From the NCBI GenBank assembly GCA_035247945.1, contig DATFHX010000019.1, positions 3,808 to 67,807 of the forward strand: a stretch of 64,000 bases of DNA, read 5' to 3'. Both the position numbers and the translations under genes were made by a program. The stretch comes from Candidatus Saccharimonadales bacterium. GTDB lineage: Bacteria; Patescibacteriota; Saccharimonadia; Saccharimonadales; Saccharimonadaceae. The notes beneath the pieces are model-generated. The model saw only the letters and a list, made by a program, of their open reading frames with translations, searched no databases and was not told the DNA's origin. Shown here piece after piece: positions 4,183 to 25,522 of the stretch. Within the stretch, counting starts at the first letter, position 1, and the number at the start of each line of letters is the position of its first letter.

Positions 4183-4818
4183 TTAAGCCCCTGGAGGTGG
4201 GGTTTCGTCACAATTGGTAATGTTCGACACGGTATAAGAATGTTTATAATAATCCTTTGTTATATCATAGCCGCCTGTAGCACCACCAACAGGATTACTA
4301 TTACAGGTATAGAACTGCGTTGAAGTGTCCGTTTGAAATTCACGAAAGCCAAGACGGCGGTAGAGGGTGCTCGTTTGCGGGGTGCCAAGCATATTCCAGG
4401 CCGAAAGAACATATTCCCTTCCATCGCTCACATATAAATAACAGCCTGTTTTGCCGTCTGCCCCCACGTGCTTGGAGGTGCCACTCTGTGGAAGCGTTTG
4501 TTCGAGACCAGGAACCCAATCAGGTGATTGCGAACCATTCGAGCAGTCACTGTCAGAATAGACATCCGCAGCACGCCAATTCGCCTGGGTATTTGTTGTG
4601 GTTTGAGGATACGACCCATGCGTCACTCGGTATGTCTCAATAAGCTTTTGAACGCCCTCTATATCACTCTGAATGCGAACATTGCGCGCTCTCATACTAA
4701 TGCCGTTATAGGCGACTATCACTATCGAGGCGAGGACGGCAATAACAGCAATGACAACTAACAGTTCAACGAGCGTAAATCCCGAGAGTCTAAGCTCCTG
4801 CTGGGGGCGTCTCATCAC
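4183..4818 (-). CDS. Type IV pilin-like protein (prepilin-type N-terminal cleavage/methylation domain)
   Basis: 211 aa. Short basic leader, then G|FTLVELLVVIAVIAVLA (class III signal). Paralog of the upstream ORF, with shared C-terminus ...YYKHS.TV.N.T.CDETPP.GA. Confidence 0.82.
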   Translation of the reverse strand: MMRRPQQELRLSGFTLVELLVVIAVIAVLASIVIVAYNGISMRARNVRIQSDIEGVQKLIETYRVTHGSYPQTTTNTQANWRAADVYSDSDCSNGSQSPDWVPGLEQTLPQSGTSKHVGADGKTGCYLYVSDGREYVLSAWNMLGTPQTSTLYRRLGFREFQTDTSTQFYTCNSNPVGGATGGYDITKDYYKHSYTVSNITNCDETPPPGA

Positions 4819-5443
4819 AGCCAGTCAAATTCCCTACGGTCAATGAATGTTTATAATAATCGGCGTTGCTATCATATCCGCTCGACGCGCCACCGATAGC
4901 GCCAAGATTACAAACTACATATTGACCGCCATGACCTTGGACGCCATCCATCTCCCGGAATCCATATCGGTGATACATGGTCGTATTCTGTGGATTCTTG
5001 ACCATATTCCACGCGGAGAGTACATATTGAATTCCGTTACTCGCATAGATATAGCAACCTCGAAGATTTCCCACTCCTGTGTTTGGATCGCTCTGCGGAA
5101 GTGTTTGGGTAATCCCTGGAACCCACTGCGCTAAGTGGTTAGTGGATGAAGTGACAGGGCAATTACCATCCCCGTTGGCTGTTATAGTGCCCCAGTTAGG
5201 ATTAAGCGAATCACCATAGTTTTGAGTCGTCATTGGATATTTGCCATTAACAGCATTATACGCTTCGACAAGTCGTTGGACACTCGCGATATCCGATTCG
5301 GCCTTAGACGTTCGTGCGCGGTCCTGGATACCGTTATAAGCAACAACGGTAATAGCTGCGAGAATAGCAATAACAACGATGACGATCAGCAGTTCAACGA
5401 TCGTGAAACCAGATTGACGCGTACCCATCCATAGCGCTTTCAT
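4790..5443 (-). CDS. Type IV pilin-like protein (prepilin-type N-terminal cleavage/methylation domain)
   Basis: 217 aa. Leader MKALWMGTRQSG|FTIVELLIVIVVIAILAA. Paralog of 4183..4818. Confidence 0.82.
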   Translation of the reverse strand: MKALWMGTRQSGFTIVELLIVIVVIAILAAITVVAYNGIQDRARTSKAESDIASVQRLVEAYNAVNGKYPMTTQNYGDSLNPNWGTITANGDGNCPVTSSTNHLAQWVPGITQTLPQSDPNTGVGNLRGCYIYASNGIQYVLSAWNMVKNPQNTTMYHRYGFREMDGVQGHGGQYVVCNLGAIGGASSGYDSNADYYKHSLTVGNLTGCDETPPAGA

Positions 5444-5473: not shown

Positions 5474-6712
5474 TTACAGATATCTTGTGCTACCAAACGG
5501 AACCTTCTGCTTAATATATATACCAGTTCCAAGTGTATCCGCAGAGTGTATCGTTCGATCGCCAAATCGTCTGTTAATCGTATCAATCGCATCTGTCACT
5601 TGCTGATCACGGGCGAGCTGGTCACCGAAGAGACTGAGCTGGTCACTCATGCCTTCACTAAGTTGGTAACAGGTAACTCCGATTTCTCGGATCGTATCGG
5701 GGGCTTCGCTAAATAACATTGCCGCCTGAGCATAAATTGCTTCGTTACTAAAGAATGGGAGGGGACACATTCGGCGGCGATGCCAATAACCGTGATCATA
5801 AGTGCGGGCATAGACAAAGACGCCACGCGCTGATCGACCCTTTAAACGGAGGCGGTGACCGACCGACTCGCAGAGGTGATGGAGACGTCGTAAAATGTCC
5901 CCTTTAGTAAGATTTTGCGACTCTAAAACATACTGTCTTCCCACCGTCTTGAGGTCATGCGTCACATCGTCAACTTCCCATCCCCTAAGTCGCTGGTGCC
6001 ACTGCCTTCCATTAATACTTTTAAAGACGACGTGATGAAGCGTATCGACACTTGCATCCAAAAATTCAATCGGCGTGTAAATACCAACAGCATTAAGTCG
6101 GGCTTCATTACGACCGGCAATCCCCGTCAGATCCTGAAGCTTCAGGCGAGAGAGGGTAGGGCGGAGGGAAGTGGAATCGACAACCGTTAGCCCATCAGGC
6201 TTATTCATCCCTGCCGCTGTTTTCGCCAAGAATCGATTAGGGGCAATGCCGATATTACAGCGCATAGCTTCCCCCACCTCCGTAAAGAGGGCATTCTTGA
6301 TCTCAAGTCCAATATCTCTAAGATCCCTCCCCTTTATGGACTCTGTTGTTTGATGGAAATCAATAATCCCCTCATCAATACTCTTCATCGTAATATGCGC
6401 CGAATATCGTTTCATGATATCCATGAGCTTATGATAGACATAGCGGTATTTCGGAGGATCACTTTCAAGTGCTACGAGGTCAGGGACAAGTTTTTTCGCT
6501 TCCTTAATCTTCATACCCATCTTGACGCCAAGCTTCTTAGCTTCGTAGCTCGCCGTGACAATCATAGTATGTTCAGTGCGACGATTTGCAATCACAACTG
6601 GACGATGACGAAGCATCGGACGCGACTGCTGTTCTATCGTCGCAAAACATGAGTTAAGGTCAACATGCATGATGAGCGGTCGCTCATCATTGTATTTTTC
6701 ACTATCCCTCAT
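5474..6712 (-). CDS. dinB: Y-family DNA polymerase (DNA polymerase IV-like)
   Basis: IMHVDLNSCFATIEQQ..RP.L..RPVVI is the Y-family (ImpB/UmuC/DinB) catalytic N-terminus. The ORF is open to 6787, but ATG at 6712 is preferred (11-nt overlap with the upstream ORF). Confidence 0.88.
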   Translation of the reverse strand: MRDSEKYNDERPLIMHVDLNSCFATIEQQSRPMLRHRPVVIANRRTEHTMIVTASYEAKKLGVKMGMKIKEAKKLVPDLVALESDPPKYRYVYHKLMDIMKRYSAHITMKSIDEGIIDFHQTTESIKGRDLRDIGLEIKNALFTEVGEAMRCNIGIAPNRFLAKTAAGMNKPDGLTVVDSTSLRPTLSRLKLQDLTGIAGRNEARLNAVGIYTPIEFLDASVDTLHHVVFKSINGRQWHQRLRGWEVDDVTHDLKTVGRQYVLESQNLTKGDILRRLHHLCESVGHRLRLKGRSARGVFVYARTYDHGYWHRRRMCPLPFFSNEAIYAQAAMLFSEAPDTIREIGVTCYQLSEGMSDQLSLFGDQLARDQQVTDAIDTINRRFGDRTIHSADTLGTGIYIKQKVPFGSTRYL

Positions 6713-6971
6713 AGTGATCCATTTCCCTTGTAAGATGCCACGTAAGGCGTTCACTATCAAATTCCAGTCGGTAATCTGTACCACCATCCGTCACTTCGAA
6801 CACATGAATTGTCCGAAGACCTGCATTCGTCGGATGACGGAGCCCCAACTTCTCTACTTCGACTTCCCTCCCATTTGGTCGCCGAAACCGCCTCGGGAGA
6901 CAAAGATCAAGGCCCTCTCCAAAGGTAGCCACCACATCAATTCGTTCGTTCAAAAAGATTTCATCATCCAT
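6702..6971 (-). CDS. Hypothetical 89-aa protein co-transcribed upstream of dinB
   Basis: ORF overlapping the dinB start. No recognised motif. Its position resembles small accessory genes found upstream of Y-family polymerases. Confidence 0.5.
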   Translation of the reverse strand: MDDEIFLNERIDVVATFGEGLDLCLPRRFRRPNGREVEVEKLGLRHPTNAGLRTIHVFEVTDGGTDYRLEFDSERLTWHLTREMDHYEG

Positions 6972-7155
6972 CGTAAAAAATTCCTCAAAAAATTATTCGA
7001 AGAAACGGCAATTTATAGATGTATCGCCCGTCTTCCCTGCCCGTCTCATGCAGCGAATCCGTAGACGATGAATGATCCTATACGCGAGGGACGCTTAACC
7101 TAAAGTCAGTGAGTATCACGCGGAATTAATTCCTATTATACCTCTAGTGTCGCGT

Positions 7156-7195
7156 AAAAGAAAACTGCCACCAGCCGGAATGTCCGGCTGGTGGC
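7156..7195 (-). terminator. Rho-independent terminator after 7214..7588
   Basis: Perfect 12-bp stem gccaccagccgg/ccggctggtggc (7167-7195), followed on the minus strand by ttttctttt. Confidence 0.65.
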
Positions 7196-7213
7196 TTCAC
7201 AATGAGGCGGCCA

Positions 7214-7588
7214 CTACTTCAAGGACGCCGCCCACTCCTGGAACAATCGGTCCAGGGCGACTCCGTACTGCTTGGAGAAGTGGGGATACAGGCACGGCTG
7301 GGCTTCGAGCAGCGACTTGACGCTGATCGTCCATCCATGCTTGATCTCCGTCGGCGTCAGCTTCTCCAGCTTTCCCGACGGCCACACCTTTCGAGGGGAC
7401 GCCAGGCATCGGATGTTCAGCGTGACACCGCACTCCGGCGACTTCAGGTCCGGCGCGATGGTACCTGCGAGCAGGTTCCAAAGCCTTGTCGCCACCGATT
7501 CACGGTATCCGTGCTCGACCGCGAACGCCACCAGGTCCGCCTGCACGACGAACCCCTTGGGAGCCGTCGGAACTTTCCGCTTGGGCAT
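7214..7588 (-). CDS. Hypothetical protein, member 1 of a local 3-paralog family (GC-rich islet)
   Basis: 124 aa. High GC3. Shares ..DLV.FA.E......A.RLWNLL.. and ..SLKSLL.......G..LDRL...W.. with 8101..8427. Own AT-rich promoter region. Confidence 0.6.
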   Translation of the reverse strand: MPKRKVPTAPKGFVVQADLVAFAVEHGYRESVATRLWNLLAGTIAPDLKSPECGVTLNIRCLASPRKVWPSGKLEKLTPTEIKHGWTISVKSLLEAQPCLYPHFSKQYGVALDRLFQEWAASLK

Positions 7589-7610
7589 TACATGCCCACC
7601 CTTCTTCTCG

Positions 7611-7635
7611 GGTACTGTGCGTTACATACAGTACC
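7611..7635. promoter_or_regulatory. Inverted repeat GGTACTGT-N9-ACAGTACC (candidate operator) just upstream of 7214..7588
   Basis: Perfect 8-bp arms, read directly. Lies between the AT-rich putative promoter (7636-7665) and the SD/start at 7588. Confidence 0.4.
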
Positions 7636-7676
7636 ATGTTTTTATAAATATAACAAATAATGGCTCGGATACTTTT

Positions 7677-7710
7677 CCTTGGAGTGACGCCTTTTGGCGC
7701 CACTCCAAGG
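7677..7710 (-). terminator. GC-rich hairpin downstream of 7715..8098 (no U-tract)
   Basis: ccttggagtgacgcc-tttt-ggcgccactccaagg, 14 bp with one A.C mismatch. Confidence 0.5.
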
Positions 7711-7714
7711 GCCG

Positions 7715-8098
7715 TTACGCGCGCGGATCGCGGAGATACTGCAGCCAGAGATGAAACAGCGACCACATATCCTCACTGTGGCCAAACAGACTGTACTGCC
7801 ACCGCTTGGAGTCTAGTGGCAGCCTGGCAAGCGCCTGCCGGTCCAGCGCAACACCTTCTCGCTGAATGTACGGCGGTATGGGGTTGACACTCCCTGTGAG
7901 TGCGTAGCCGGATTCAGCAGACACAGCATCCACGCGCCCCATGCCGTTGTTGATCGTGTATCGATGCAGGTCCTCGGTCATGATCTTCCAGAGCTTTTGA
8001 ATGGTGCGCTGGTTGTTCAGATGCCTCATCTCCGGAACTCGACGCGCCAGCTCCCCAGCGAACTGACGTAGGTCAGACTCTTTGACGTACTTTGTCAC
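7715..8098 (-). CDS. Hypothetical protein, divergent member 2 of the local paralog family (GC-rich islet)
   Basis: 127 aa. GTG start 2 nt after the upstream stop, with GGAAGG SD inside the upstream gene. Motifs SDLRQFAGE...KLWKIM and GVALDRQ echo the paralogs. Confidence 0.55.
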   Translation of the reverse strand: MTKYVKESDLRQFAGELARRVPEMRHLNNQRTIQKLWKIMTEDLHRYTINNGMGRVDAVSAESGYALTGSVNPIPPYIQREGVALDRQALARLPLDSKRWQYSLFGHSEDMWSLFHLWLQYLRDPRA

Positions 8099-8100
8099 GA

Positions 8101-8427
8101 CTATCGCCTTCCGTTCTTGAGCATTTTACTCCTCAGCCATGCTTTCAGGAGCCGATCAATGGTATCCCCATACCCAGGGATACAACCAGGCCCGACCGAA
8201 CGAAGCCTCAACAGACTCTTCAGAGACCCCCGCGAAATAGCACGTTCACCCGGAACCACGCTTGAATGAAATACAAGCACTTCTCGATTAAGCCGATGCT
8301 TGAGATGCGCATCGAGCTCACCAAGAAGATTCCAAAGGCGATATGCAGCTTCGCGCGAGAACCGCCCTTCGCATGCAAATCGCACGAGATCACTTCGCTC
8401 CATCCACACTTCCGCCTCTTGCGGCAT
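8101..8427 (-). CDS. Hypothetical protein, member 3 of the local paralog family (GC-rich islet)
   Basis: The ORF is open to 8457. ATG at 8427 is preceded by GAGGAG. Motifs SDLVRFACEGRFSREAAYRLWNLLGE and GSLKSLLRL...GDTIDRLLKAWL. Confidence 0.6.
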   Translation of the reverse strand: MPQEAEVWMERSDLVRFACEGRFSREAAYRLWNLLGELDAHLKHRLNREVLVFHSSVVPGERAISRGSLKSLLRLRSVGPGCIPGYGDTIDRLLKAWLRSKMLKNGRR

Positions 8428-8518
8428 GCTACACTCCTCGCGTGCGAACAAGTTCATTATATCAGATCACCCTCTAGAAAATCCGTCAGCTATTTGTTAT
8501 AATCTCCAGAGTACATGT

Positions 8519-8595
8519 GGCAGCGTAGCTCAGTCGGTTAGAGCGTAGGACTCATAAGCCTAAGGTCACTGGTTCGATCCCAGTCGCTGCTACCA
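8519..8595 (+). tRNA. tRNA-Met (CAT), elongator type
   Basis: Cloverleaf folded by hand: GGCAGCG/CGCTGCT acceptor, GCTC/GAGC D-stem, loop CTCATAA, ACTGG/CCAGT T-arm with TTCGATC, CCA encoded. No initiator signatures. T-arm and acceptor resemble classical elongator tRNA-Met. TATAAT at 8497-8502. Confidence 0.88.
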
Positions 8596-14651: not shown

Positions 14652-15806
14652 TTACTGAGCGCGTCCCACTCTCTTAACTATAACTAATGCTACTCCCTCG
14701 ACACCGAGAGCTACTGCTAAGCCAGTATATATCCCCTGATTCACACCTGTTGCTGGGAGTGTCGGTACATCCGAGGCTGGCGACGGAGTGTTATCACTTG
14801 GCGTAGGATCTATGGATGGAATAATATCTGAGATAACACCAAGCTTATTTGCATTACTTTCCGTAAACCAGATTGTATTATTTGGTCCGGCAGCAATTAG
14901 AAAGGGTGCGCTGCCTGCCGTTGGAATATCATATTCCGTAAAGACGCCCGCAGGCGTGATCATGCCAATTTTATTGGTCCCACGTTCTGTGAACCAGACG
15001 TTCCCATCCGCACCAAGTGCAGTACCATGGGGATCACTTGTGCTCCCAGATGGAACAGTATACTCGGTAATTACACCCGCAGTCGTAATTTTGCTGACAC
15101 GGCCGCCCTCACCGGCGTACCAAAGATTCCCGTCCGATCCAGTGGTAATATCGTAGGGTCGACGAGTTGGCGTACCGAGGATTGGATATTCCGTGACTAC
15201 TCCGCTTGTAGTAATCATTCCTATATTTGCGCCGGTATATTCCGTAAACCATATATTACTATCTGGTCCTACAGTAATTCCATAGGGAGAGCTCGCTGCT
15301 GTCGTAACAGGGAAAAGTGTGATCACGCCAGTAGGTGTAATACGTCCGATCTGGTCACCTCCGATATGCGTAAACCAGATATTTCCATCGGGGCCTGTGA
15401 TAAGTTCGTGTGGATTTGATCCTCCAGTGATACTGTATTCAGTTATTACACCCGTTGGTGTTATAACACCGATCTTATTTGCACCGTATTCGGTAAACCA
15501 AAGATTTCCATCTGGTCCGACAGCTATATCGTTTGGTTGACTATTCGGTGTCGGAACCGTGTATTCATTAAGTACCGCGCCAGAAGGAGACATGACACCA
15601 ATTTTATTTGCGGAAAATTCCGTAAACCACATGTTACCATCCGGGCCAAGCACTACTTCGTGCGGAACGCTCGCTGCGGTCGTAATGTCATATTCTGCTA
15701 TTGAAACAGCGGCGAATGTTGGCTGAGCCGCTACGAGTGCTACAAGAAAGGTTGCAGTAGCTCCCATACTAGTGCGTTTTAGTTTTAGCAGAGTATTCTT
15801 AATCAT
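14652..15806 (-). CDS. Wall-anchored beta-propeller protein with Vgb/streptogramin-lyase-like repeats
   Basis: 384 aa. Signal peptide. About seven repeats of about 42 aa (GPDGN.WFTE...NKIG.I(T/S)P.G...EY..P). C-terminus LPATG + TM + KRVGRAQ. Confidence 0.8.
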   Translation of the reverse strand: MIKNTLLKLKRTSMGATATFLVALVAAQPTFAAVSIAEYDITTAASVPHEVVLGPDGNMWFTEFSANKIGVMSPSGAVLNEYTVPTPNSQPNDIAVGPDGNLWFTEYGANKIGVITPTGVITEYSITGGSNPHELITGPDGNIWFTHIGGDQIGRITPTGVITLFPVTTAASSPYGITVGPDSNIWFTEYTGANIGMITTSGVVTEYPILGTPTRRPYDITTGSDGNLWYAGEGGRVSKITTAGVITEYTVPSGSTSDPHGTALGADGNVWFTERGTNKIGMITPAGVFTEYDIPTAGSAPFLIAAGPNNTIWFTESNANKLGVISDIIPSIDPTPSDNTPSPASDVPTLPATGVNQGIYTGLAVALGVEGVALVIVKRVGRAQ

Positions 15807-23506: not shown

Positions 23507-23584
23507 CGCGGGGTGGAGCAGTCTGGTCAGCTCGTTGGGCTCATAACCCAAAGGTCGTAGGTTCAAATCCTACCCCCGCAACCA
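23507..23584 (+). tRNA. Initiator tRNA-fMet (CAT)
   Basis: CGCGGGG...CCCCGCA acceptor with C1xA72 mismatch. Anticodon stem ends in three G:C pairs (TTGGG CTCATAA CCCAA). T-loop TTCAAAT. CCA encoded. Confidence 0.92.
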
Positions 23585-25446: not shown

Positions 25447-25522
25447 GGGGGCGTAGCTCATCGGTTAGAGCAGGCGGCTCATAACCACTTGGTAGTTGGT
25501 TCGATTCCAACCGCCCCCACCA
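25447..25522 (+). tRNA. tRNA with CAT anticodon, most likely tRNA-Ile2 (lysidine-modified)
   Basis: GGGGGCG/CGCCCCC acceptor. The anticodon arm AGGCGGCTCATAACCACTTGGT closely resembles the classical tRNA-Ile2 arm (AGGCGACUCAUAAUCGCUUGGU), with one C.A mismatch in the stem. TATAAT at 25431-25436. CCA encoded. Confidence 0.8.

Follow-up and report, generated by a model that had tools for sequence, protein, structure and literature searches.

Small paralogous proteins arrayed at a variable junction between tRNA-Met and the dinB operon of Saccharibacteria, without a match in the family and structure libraries searched

What are the three small genes that lie side by side in the gap separating tRNA-Met from the dinB operon in a Candidatus Saccharimonadales bacterium, how is their locus built, and what might their products do? 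The stretch of DNA that raises this question, here called the window, comprises 64,000 nucleotides of contig DATFHX010000019.1 (positions 3,808 to 67,807 of the forward strand; assembly GCA_035247945.1). An earlier note, made from the sequence alone, had singled out within it a GC-rich islet encoding a three-member protein family of unknown function, and had proposed it as an undescribed accessory module. The first part of the question can be answered plainly: The genes encode a protein family without a match in any of the family or structure libraries that we searched, in a setting, a hotspot-borne multigene array, that is already familiar. Saccharibacteria are reduced-genome epibionts, most of whose lineage-specific genes are unexplained, and the islet offers a compact and well-delimited case of such genes.

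Three selected genes of one family

All three adjacent minus-strand open reading frames (ORFs) on which that proposal was built were found in place within 7141-8477. Gene A (8101..8427) encodes a protein of 108 amino acids (aa) with an isoelectric point (pI) of 10.3, which the hidden Markov model (HMM) of the family matches at E 1e-27; gene B (7715..8098) starts with GTG and encodes a more distant paralog of 127 aa (B-type; pI 9.6); and gene C (7214..7588), a transcription unit of its own, encodes 124 aa (pI 9.5) and is, together with A, an A/C-type member. The stretch ftsH-tilS-pilin-dinB-89aa-C-B-A-tRNA recurs at ~84% identity in a JGI metagenome contig (L001, hereafter the sister contig) and in several Logan contigs, and all three genes are intact in the sister contig. 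Gene A starts at ATG 8427, with the Shine-Dalgarno (SD) sequence GAGGAG 6 nt upstream. An alternative start at ATG 8457 was rejected, as it lies inside the −10 box TATAAT and a 4-nt indel in the sister contig breaks its frame. The stop codon of gene A (TAG, 8101-8103) is separated by 2 nt from the GTG of gene B (8096-8098), with GGAAGG upstream, while the sister contig has the pair overlapping as TGATG, with an ATG start for gene B, all of which bears out the translational coupling that had been proposed for this pair.

Upon estimating substitution rates against the sister contig (Nei-Gojobori method), we obtained ratios of nonsynonymous to synonymous substitution rates (dN/dS) of 0.12 for A, 0.10 for B and 0.43 for C, as compared to 0.014 for dinB and 0.023 for the 89-aa gene of the same operon. 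The protein identity to the sister orthologs was 83% for A and 69% for C, and gene B orthologs ranged from 56 to 91%. Given such low dN/dS in the minus-strand frames, A, B and C are selected coding genes, if much less constrained than their neighbors, and the concern that these ORFs might be conserved nowhere fell away. These data also effectively refute the reading of the three frames as chance ORFs in a GC-rich spacer. Long antisense ORFs do run along the plus strand (7202-7660 and 7272-7754), as that reading would expect for GC-rich DNA; against it stand dN/dS values well under 1, homologs in many contigs, SD sequences, promoters and terminators in place, and confident AlphaFold2 models.

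The islet is indeed GC-rich. Its GC content in a sliding window is 51-63%, as compared to 43-50% in the flanks, and the GC content at third codon positions (GC3) is 0.50 for A, 0.69 for B and 0.83 for C, versus 0.43-0.46 for the 89-aa gene and dinB. Across loci, family genes range from 0.50 to 0.92 in GC3, while the dinB and pentapeptide-repeat genes of their hosts remain at 0.42-0.46. Synonymous divergence (dS) between the window and the sister contig was uneven as well: B and C gave ~0.41, as compared to 0.95 for A, 0.87 for the 89-aa gene and 1.28 for dinB. This lower dS over B-C (7214-8098) could reflect either a strong codon bias at GC3 or a more recent exchange of B-C between lineages.

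The kinship of the three proteins emerged at two depths. A and C are paralogs by BLASTP (32% identity, E 5e-9), while B gave no significant match to A/C by BLASTP or by comparison of shallow profiles (hhalign). Significance for gene B was reached only because the profiles were then enriched to 16 A/C-type and 5 B-type sequences, for which hhalign returned a probability of 91% and an E value of 9.6e-7 over 107 of ~125 columns. In addition, the A/C HMM weakly detected B ORFs, and a joint alignment was coherent over the full length. The description of the islet as a three-member paralogous family with a more divergent middle member therefore stands.

AlphaFold2 yielded models for gene C (predicted local distance difference test score, pLDDT, 85.4; predicted template modeling score, pTM, 0.76) and gene B (pLDDT 87.0, pTM 0.81) that run through the same order of elements, i.e., a strand, a helical segment, a strand, a loop, a short helix, a strand, helices and, last, a long C-terminal helix, with additional short helices within the helical stretches of the B model. 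The invariant or near-invariant columns are all hydrophobic (L19, F22, L36, W37, L115 and W119 in C numbering), where the first four belong to two N-terminal helices and the last two to the C-terminal helix. Because only these hydrophobic core positions are conserved, the family does not look enzyme-like and is better described as a scaffold with variable surfaces. Taken together, A, B and C appear to form one superfamily of small (~100-130 aa) cytoplasmic, presumably non-catalytic alpha/beta proteins that is restricted to Saccharibacteria.

No family was found for A, B or C in Pfam-A, NCBIfam, PHROGs or PADLOC at E values up to 1, and when 17-22 family members were run against family libraries, only scattered single matches at E ≥ 0.01 appeared. 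The earlier note, which had recognized no domain, thus proved correct in these libraries, and the profile searches that it had called for assigned the proteins to no well-known family. Sequences in the PDB gave no match for the family, nor, beyond noise, for a profile of its N-terminal module. Structural comparison by Foldseek, with a fold match defined as E < 1e-3 or a template modeling (TM) score > 0.5, likewise returned no PDB match for the B and C models (best E 4.4 for B; best E 3.3 and TM 0.23 for C) and no BFVD match for the C model (best match E 0.72, TM 0.28), for which all BFVD matches were non-significant (E ≥ 0.7, TM ≤ 0.32). Judged against PDB and BFVD alone, the predicted fold may provisionally be called new. 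Across 5.8 billion cluster representatives (three word-index searches) and 1.84 billion representatives (one full HMMER pass), the family turned up in only a few dozen clusters among 15 billion proteins, all metagenomic and none informatively named. Scans of GTDB genomes and JGI metagenomes with B-family patterns came back empty, and we found nothing relevant in the literature on the hotspot, the family or the leader RNA described below.

Gene turnover at a fixed junction

The islet occupies a junction between divergent neighbors that are conserved in related Saccharibacteria. A search with the 89-aa protein matched Saccharimonadaceae-like metagenome-assembled genomes, which assigns the source to Candidatus Saccharibacteria. 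One border is the tRNA-Met gene (anticodon CAT; 8519..8595, plus strand), which forms the same border in more than 35 related loci. The other is the structured 5′ leader (6972..7125, minus strand) of an operon of an 89-aa ORF (6702-6971, minus strand) and dinB (5474-6712, minus strand; a 412-aa DinB, or Pol IV), where the leader lies between the −10 box (7135-7140) and the 89-aa start codon (6971). Across loci, the gap from tRNA-Met to the 89-aa gene varies from 228 bp to ~4.2 kb. In two of them (L026 and L031), the site is empty, with 228-229 bp that hold the two promoters and the leader alone. Elsewhere, the cargo varies: a pentapeptide-repeat protein is common, and further residents are a Maf-like protein, an apparent HAD-type nucleotidase (judged by eye), unrelated ORFs and, in a minority, the present family, detectable members of which were found in 3 of ~60 hotspot loci (GTDB genomes and JGI metagenomes). 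The comparison with relatives lacking the islet hence identified the block as a variable insert at a junction that can be empty or otherwise filled.

The family itself comprises at least 10 subfamilies at ~40% identity, in arrays of 1-5 members whose combination differs in each islet. While the window and the sister contig carry A-B-C, we observed two A/C-type genes, a pentapeptide protein and then B in L005; four A/C-type genes and a pentapeptide protein in L011; four A/C-type genes, a pentapeptide protein and one more member in L044; two A/C-type genes and B in L035; two A/C-type genes, a 211-aa unannotated protein and then B in L040; and a single member each in L020 and L046. Five larger, very distant relatives occupy L063, one of them with a duplicated N-terminal module. 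The array genes are mostly set apart by their own −10-like box and terminator hairpin, and a few, such as A and B, abut or overlap. The whole looks like a set of old paralogs under gain and loss, in cassette arrays that grow and shrink.

Several side observations touch on how such cassettes may arise. Near-identical terminator hairpins, GGCCGCGATC...GATCGCGGCC followed by a T-run, stand behind successive cassettes in L035 (~7905-7935 and ~8390-8420) and in L008 (~512-540), and because successive cassettes share this hairpin, the sequence suggests that gene and terminator were duplicated together. The gene A promoter and the start of its 5′ untranslated region (CTAGAGG...TATAAT...TTCGCACGCGA) resemble the promoter and leader start of the dinB operon (CTAGAGGTATAAT...TTCCGCGTGA), a weak hint that cassettes might spread by local duplication of promoter regions rather than by transposition. 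A 16-nt direct repeat, CATTCAAGYCTAGAGG, flanks a 150-aa cassette of L020 on both sides (~5155-5170 and ~5915-5930) and hints in the same direction. The pentapeptide-repeat protein (~205-245 aa, of host-like GC content) is the commonest resident of the hotspot and often stands beside the arrays; it is not present in the window, and its gene was found, among others, at L005 1062-1673, L011 1752-2381, L016 5105-5737, L043 1004-1639, L044 2846-3577 and L046 8-544.

Within the window, the sequence resolves into two transcription units, A-B and C, the latter with its own promoter, operator-like site and terminator. The A-B promoter has its −10 box TATAAT at 8456..8461 (minus strand), overlapping the spurious ATG 8457, and this box is kept in L003 and L004. 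For gene C, the hexamers as read from the sequence are a −35 of TTGTTA (7651-7656) and a −10 of TACTGT (7628-7633), on the minus strand, with a 17-nt spacer and a TG-n before the −10. Over this −10 lies an operator-like palindrome, GGTACTGT-N9-ACAGTACC (7611..7635), which occurs once in the 64-kb window and is identical at 25 of 25 nt in the sister contig although the adjoining spacer varies. Just past the stop codon of gene B, on the minus strand, a hairpin (7677..7710; free energy, dG, −32.6, z −6.8; no U-run) keeps its stem in the sister contig despite differences on both arms, and it is predicted to be a 3′-end or processing hairpin, or a weak terminator. Gene C ends in an intrinsic terminator (7157..7195, minus strand; dG −29 kcal/mol, z −5.9) of a 13-bp stem, the hairpin lying at 7167-7195, followed by the U-run UUUUCUUUU, and it is conserved in the sister contig. 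The separate promoter of gene C, its palindrome, the hairpin before it and the strong terminator that bounds the block had all been pointed out from the sequence, and the conservation in the sister contig and the folding scores support them.

The palindrome TACTGT-N9-ACAGTA is one off the spacing of the E. coli LexA box, although the E. coli consensus may not be that of the host, and no second copy was found in the window or the other loci. The literature consulted yielded no LexA motif for comparison. Another palindrome, GGAATTAATTCC, past the −10 of the dinB operon, was dropped as an operator because the sister contig does not keep it. A type II toxin-antitoxin pair of A and B was rejected likewise, as their coupling is limited to the lineage of the window and the sister contig; elsewhere, gene B has its own promoter, stands behind a terminator or another gene, or is absent.

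Could the islet be a mobile element? The earlier note had pointed to the 7-mer CCTCTAG outside each end as a possible target-site duplication. Both copies exist (7141..7147 and 8471..8477, plus strand), and both sit at promoters, which explains them: The first abuts the −10 (7135-7140) of the dinB operon promoter and reads CTAGA-G in the sister contig, and the second overlaps the −35 (TAGAAA, 8475-8480) of the tRNA-Met promoter. The 7-mer has 4 copies in the window as compared to 5.7 expected. Most related loci, the empty site L031 among them, keep the region of the second copy as TTTTCYAGRGG, while L026 retains TTTTCTAG alone. The target-site duplication was accordingly rejected.

A remnant of mobile-element cargo, i.e., anti-defense or host-takeover genes integrated at the tRNA, would fit with the tRNA adjacency, the raised GC content and the small orphan genes with their own promoters. 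The lower dS of B and C could be taken as more recent exchange, and the far side of the tRNA is variable too: the window has an LPXTG surface protein there, L035 (1-7300) has HNH, Gp49-like and HSDR_N genes, and L012 has a DUF4190 gene. The homology to the sister contig spans the entire tRNA-Met and ends exactly at the tRNA 3′ end, and the synteny break on the far side was placed by comparing the window from 8596 onward with L003 1-247. Opposed to this origin, we found no integrase or transposase at the islet or its flanks and no att repeat of the tRNA 3′ end, and the position of the islet is 5′ of the tRNA, at its promoter. For the same reasons, a tRNA-targeting integrative element was rejected. 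An integron cassette array was rejected as well, since an integrase is missing, most of the genes come with a −10 box of their own, and the hairpins at their 3′ ends are GC-rich terminators of the ordinary kind, with U-runs. Scans of IMG/VR with the B and A/C alignments and tblastn searches of the INPHARED phages and PLSDB plasmids gave no relatives, PADLOC and PHROGs gave no match for the family, and position and synteny are stable across genomes with a dS of ~1. We regard mobile cargo as very unlikely, and a mobile-element origin is not supported. Of the accessory module as first proposed, an orphan, regulated and variable islet survives, on the evidence of conservation, promoters and empty sites. 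For the roles offered at the time (regulator, anti-defense or host-interaction factor), neither PADLOC and PHROGs nor the fold comparisons gave an informative match.

Possible action on DNA synthesis and its rivals

What the proteins do can be approached through their neighbors. Every array adjoins the dinB (Pol IV) operon. Two single members with an extra N-terminal helix stand elsewhere: one lies 77 nt downstream of dnaE (L009 10001-10432), and the other follows downstream of dnaX and a dnaB that contains an intein, with ybaB-recR close by (L037 6330-6776). It is these three contexts that give the locus its DNA-synthesis theme. The pentapeptide-repeat class to which the commonest co-resident belongs includes gyrase-protecting DNA mimics, and Qnr, MfpA, McbG and AlbG are gyrase protectors of this class. 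We tentatively favor a role for A, B and C as small proteins that bind to, and act on, DNA or the machinery of replication and damage tolerance, a reading that we consider possible rather than probable. Besides this genomic neighborhood, what speaks for it is that most members are basic, that catalytic residues are lacking and that gene C carries a repressor-type operator.

In such a scheme, the separately transcribed cassettes, which lie where the promoters of tRNA-Met and of the leader-89aa-dinB operon diverge, would encode products that share a stable scaffold with fast-changing surfaces and act by binding and not by catalysis. Members would bind DNA, or components of replication and damage tolerance, and modulate or protect them. 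A dimeric repressor, bound to the palindrome that overlaps the −10 of gene C, would keep this gene silent until relieved by a signal. Of this scheme, we infer how the proteins bind, their tie to DNA metabolism and the repression at the palindrome. A fuller version, in which a genuinely new fold binds and modulates or shields DinB, Pol III, DnaB or gyrase and has diversified in a hotspot beside a riboswitch-like dinB leader, seems rather doubtful to us; if true, it would mean that these ultra-small epibiotic bacteria control or protect their DNA synthesis through a layer specific to their lineage.

Several findings weigh against a binding role in DNA synthesis. The neighborhood argument was made post hoc from three independent contexts. 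No DNA-binding fold or helix-turn-helix (HTH) was found by Foldseek with the B and C models or with the N-terminal profile against PDB sequences. The palindrome is confined to this lineage, and in L035 another promoter precedes the C-type ortholog. While most members are basic, several are acidic (pI 4.7-5.9). Lastly, the family is missing from most of the Saccharibacteria that share this dinB locus and is therefore dispensable for dinB function.

The main rival, which we hold to be unlikely though not remote, is an orphan immunity-type array, where each paralog would neutralize another variant of a host or competitor toxin or inhibitor, with the pentapeptide protein shielding gyrase likewise. 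It accounts for the tandem paralogs, their strain-specific combinations and the relaxed constraint no less well than the favored reading, and it draws on the array itself: tandem divergent paralogs (25-40% identity) in sets that vary from one related genome to the next, conservation of the core alone, relaxed constraint (dN/dS of 0.43 for C as compared to 0.014 for dinB), and a foreign-looking GC3 of 0.5-0.9 versus ~0.45, with the pentapeptide gene host-like. Immunity-gene islands typically show such features, and the pentapeptide-repeat class has immunity proteins of its own in McbG and AlbG. Yet the fetched loci contained no toxin domain, secretion-system marker or known immunity family, no Imm family of Pfam was matched, and the B and C models gave no SUKH- or Imm-like fold match. 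The family was furthermore not found on mobile elements, and its extreme rarity contrasts with the wide distribution that immunity families usually have. Measured against what defines such arrays, the locus thus has the tandem divergent paralogs (2-5 members) and lacks a linked toxin or Imm homology.

Less likely still are small DNA-binding transcription regulators, in which an N-terminal HTH-like pair (DLxxFAxExG...AxRLWxLL) and the C-terminal helix would together form a permuted winged helix, with C autoregulating through its palindrome. Going by the order of elements only, helices 1 and 2 and the C-terminal helix could make up such a permuted winged-helix core, and searches that depend on element order would miss the permutation. 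The basic pI of most members, the perfect conserved palindrome over the −10 of C, and the behavior of the N-terminal module as a unit, duplicated within the larger relatives of L063, agree with a regulator, and the weak top BFVD matches include Bro-N, regulatory and DNA-binding proteins. Those matches, however, are the non-significant ones given above, there was no fold or sequence match in PDB and no Pfam HTH even at E 10, and other family genes are without a comparable operator. Five paralogous regulators at one locus would also be unusual in a genome of ~1 Mb. We consider regulators improbable.

Independent of these readings, the locus appears to undergo gene-by-gene turnover at a fixed junction beside the sole translesion polymerase operon, and its empty, pentapeptide-only and family-filled states provide a natural system for gene gain without mobile-element machinery. 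If the link to replication and damage tolerance or to protection from toxins holds, the family would show how Saccharibacteria tune or defend DNA synthesis and would add a new small fold to structural biology.

The dinB leader, other features and known systems

The leader of the 89-aa/dinB operon drew attention in its own right. It is ~155 nt long and conserved in every related locus, and an alignment of 26 Saccharibacteria loci folded by RNAalifold into 28 pairs, 14 of which show compensatory changes. In this structure, 93.8% of cells pair, as compared to 84.7 ± 0.8% in shuffles, and the covariation score of 0.369 exceeded that of shuffles (0.188; 0/500 reach 0.369) and of register-shifted controls (≤ 0.157). 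The last helix pairs with the SD region, and a comparison to Rfam 15 came back empty, both at gathering scores and with E values as high as 1. The leader is hence a candidate for a new cis-regulatory RNA or riboswitch controlling the dinB translesion polymerase operon, and one that is open to testing. The 89-aa protein, whose gene overlaps the dinB start, shows strong conservation throughout Saccharibacteria (96% aa identity to its counterpart in the sister contig) and has no family in Pfam, NCBIfam or PADLOC; it looks like an unrecognized partner of Pol IV.

Elsewhere in the window stand two adjacent prepilin-type (N_methyl) genes (4183-4818 and 4790-5443). The alignment to the sister contig, in which a single such gene was called, leaves out ~500 bp of the window sequence, and close relatives thus seem to differ in pilin copy number. 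Three tRNA genes of the window have a CAT anticodon (8519-8595, 23507-23584 and 25447-25522), and a virginiamycin B lyase-family gene (14652-15806) lies among large surface proteins.

How does the islet compare to known systems? Immunity arrays of polymorphic toxin systems (SUKH/Imm and orphan immunity islands) are similar in that they, too, consist of small, tandem, divergent and non-catalytic paralogs that vary between strains and conserve their core. In contrast to these, the present family has no Imm or SUKH similarity in sequence or fold and no toxin or secretion genes nearby, and it is chromosomal, stands beside dinB, and occurs in few Saccharibacteria only. The Bro-N/KilA-N modules of phages form a comparable multigene family of ~100-aa alpha+beta proteins with an N-terminal strand-helix-helix and were among the weak BFVD matches, although these were non-significant and came with no Pfam match and no phage context.

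The SOS accessory genes of translesion polymerases (E. coli dinB-yafNOP; the LexA-repressed antirepressors Tum and GfoA) share with this locus the small genes beside dinB and, in gene C, a CTGT...ACAG-type palindrome over the −10. Here, the palindrome reads CTGT-N9-ACAG, as compared to N8 in the E. coli box (a consensus that, as said, the host need not share), and the proteins have no homology to those of the SOS systems. Last, tRNA-linked islets and integration hotspots show the same variable insert at a fixed tRNA junction, the same empty or otherwise filled sites and a deviant composition. The present locus differs from these in having no integrase or att repeat and in placing its insert in the divergent promoter region 5′ of the tRNA, where the cargo appears to turn over gene by gene, with genes that usually carry their own −10-like box and terminator hairpin.

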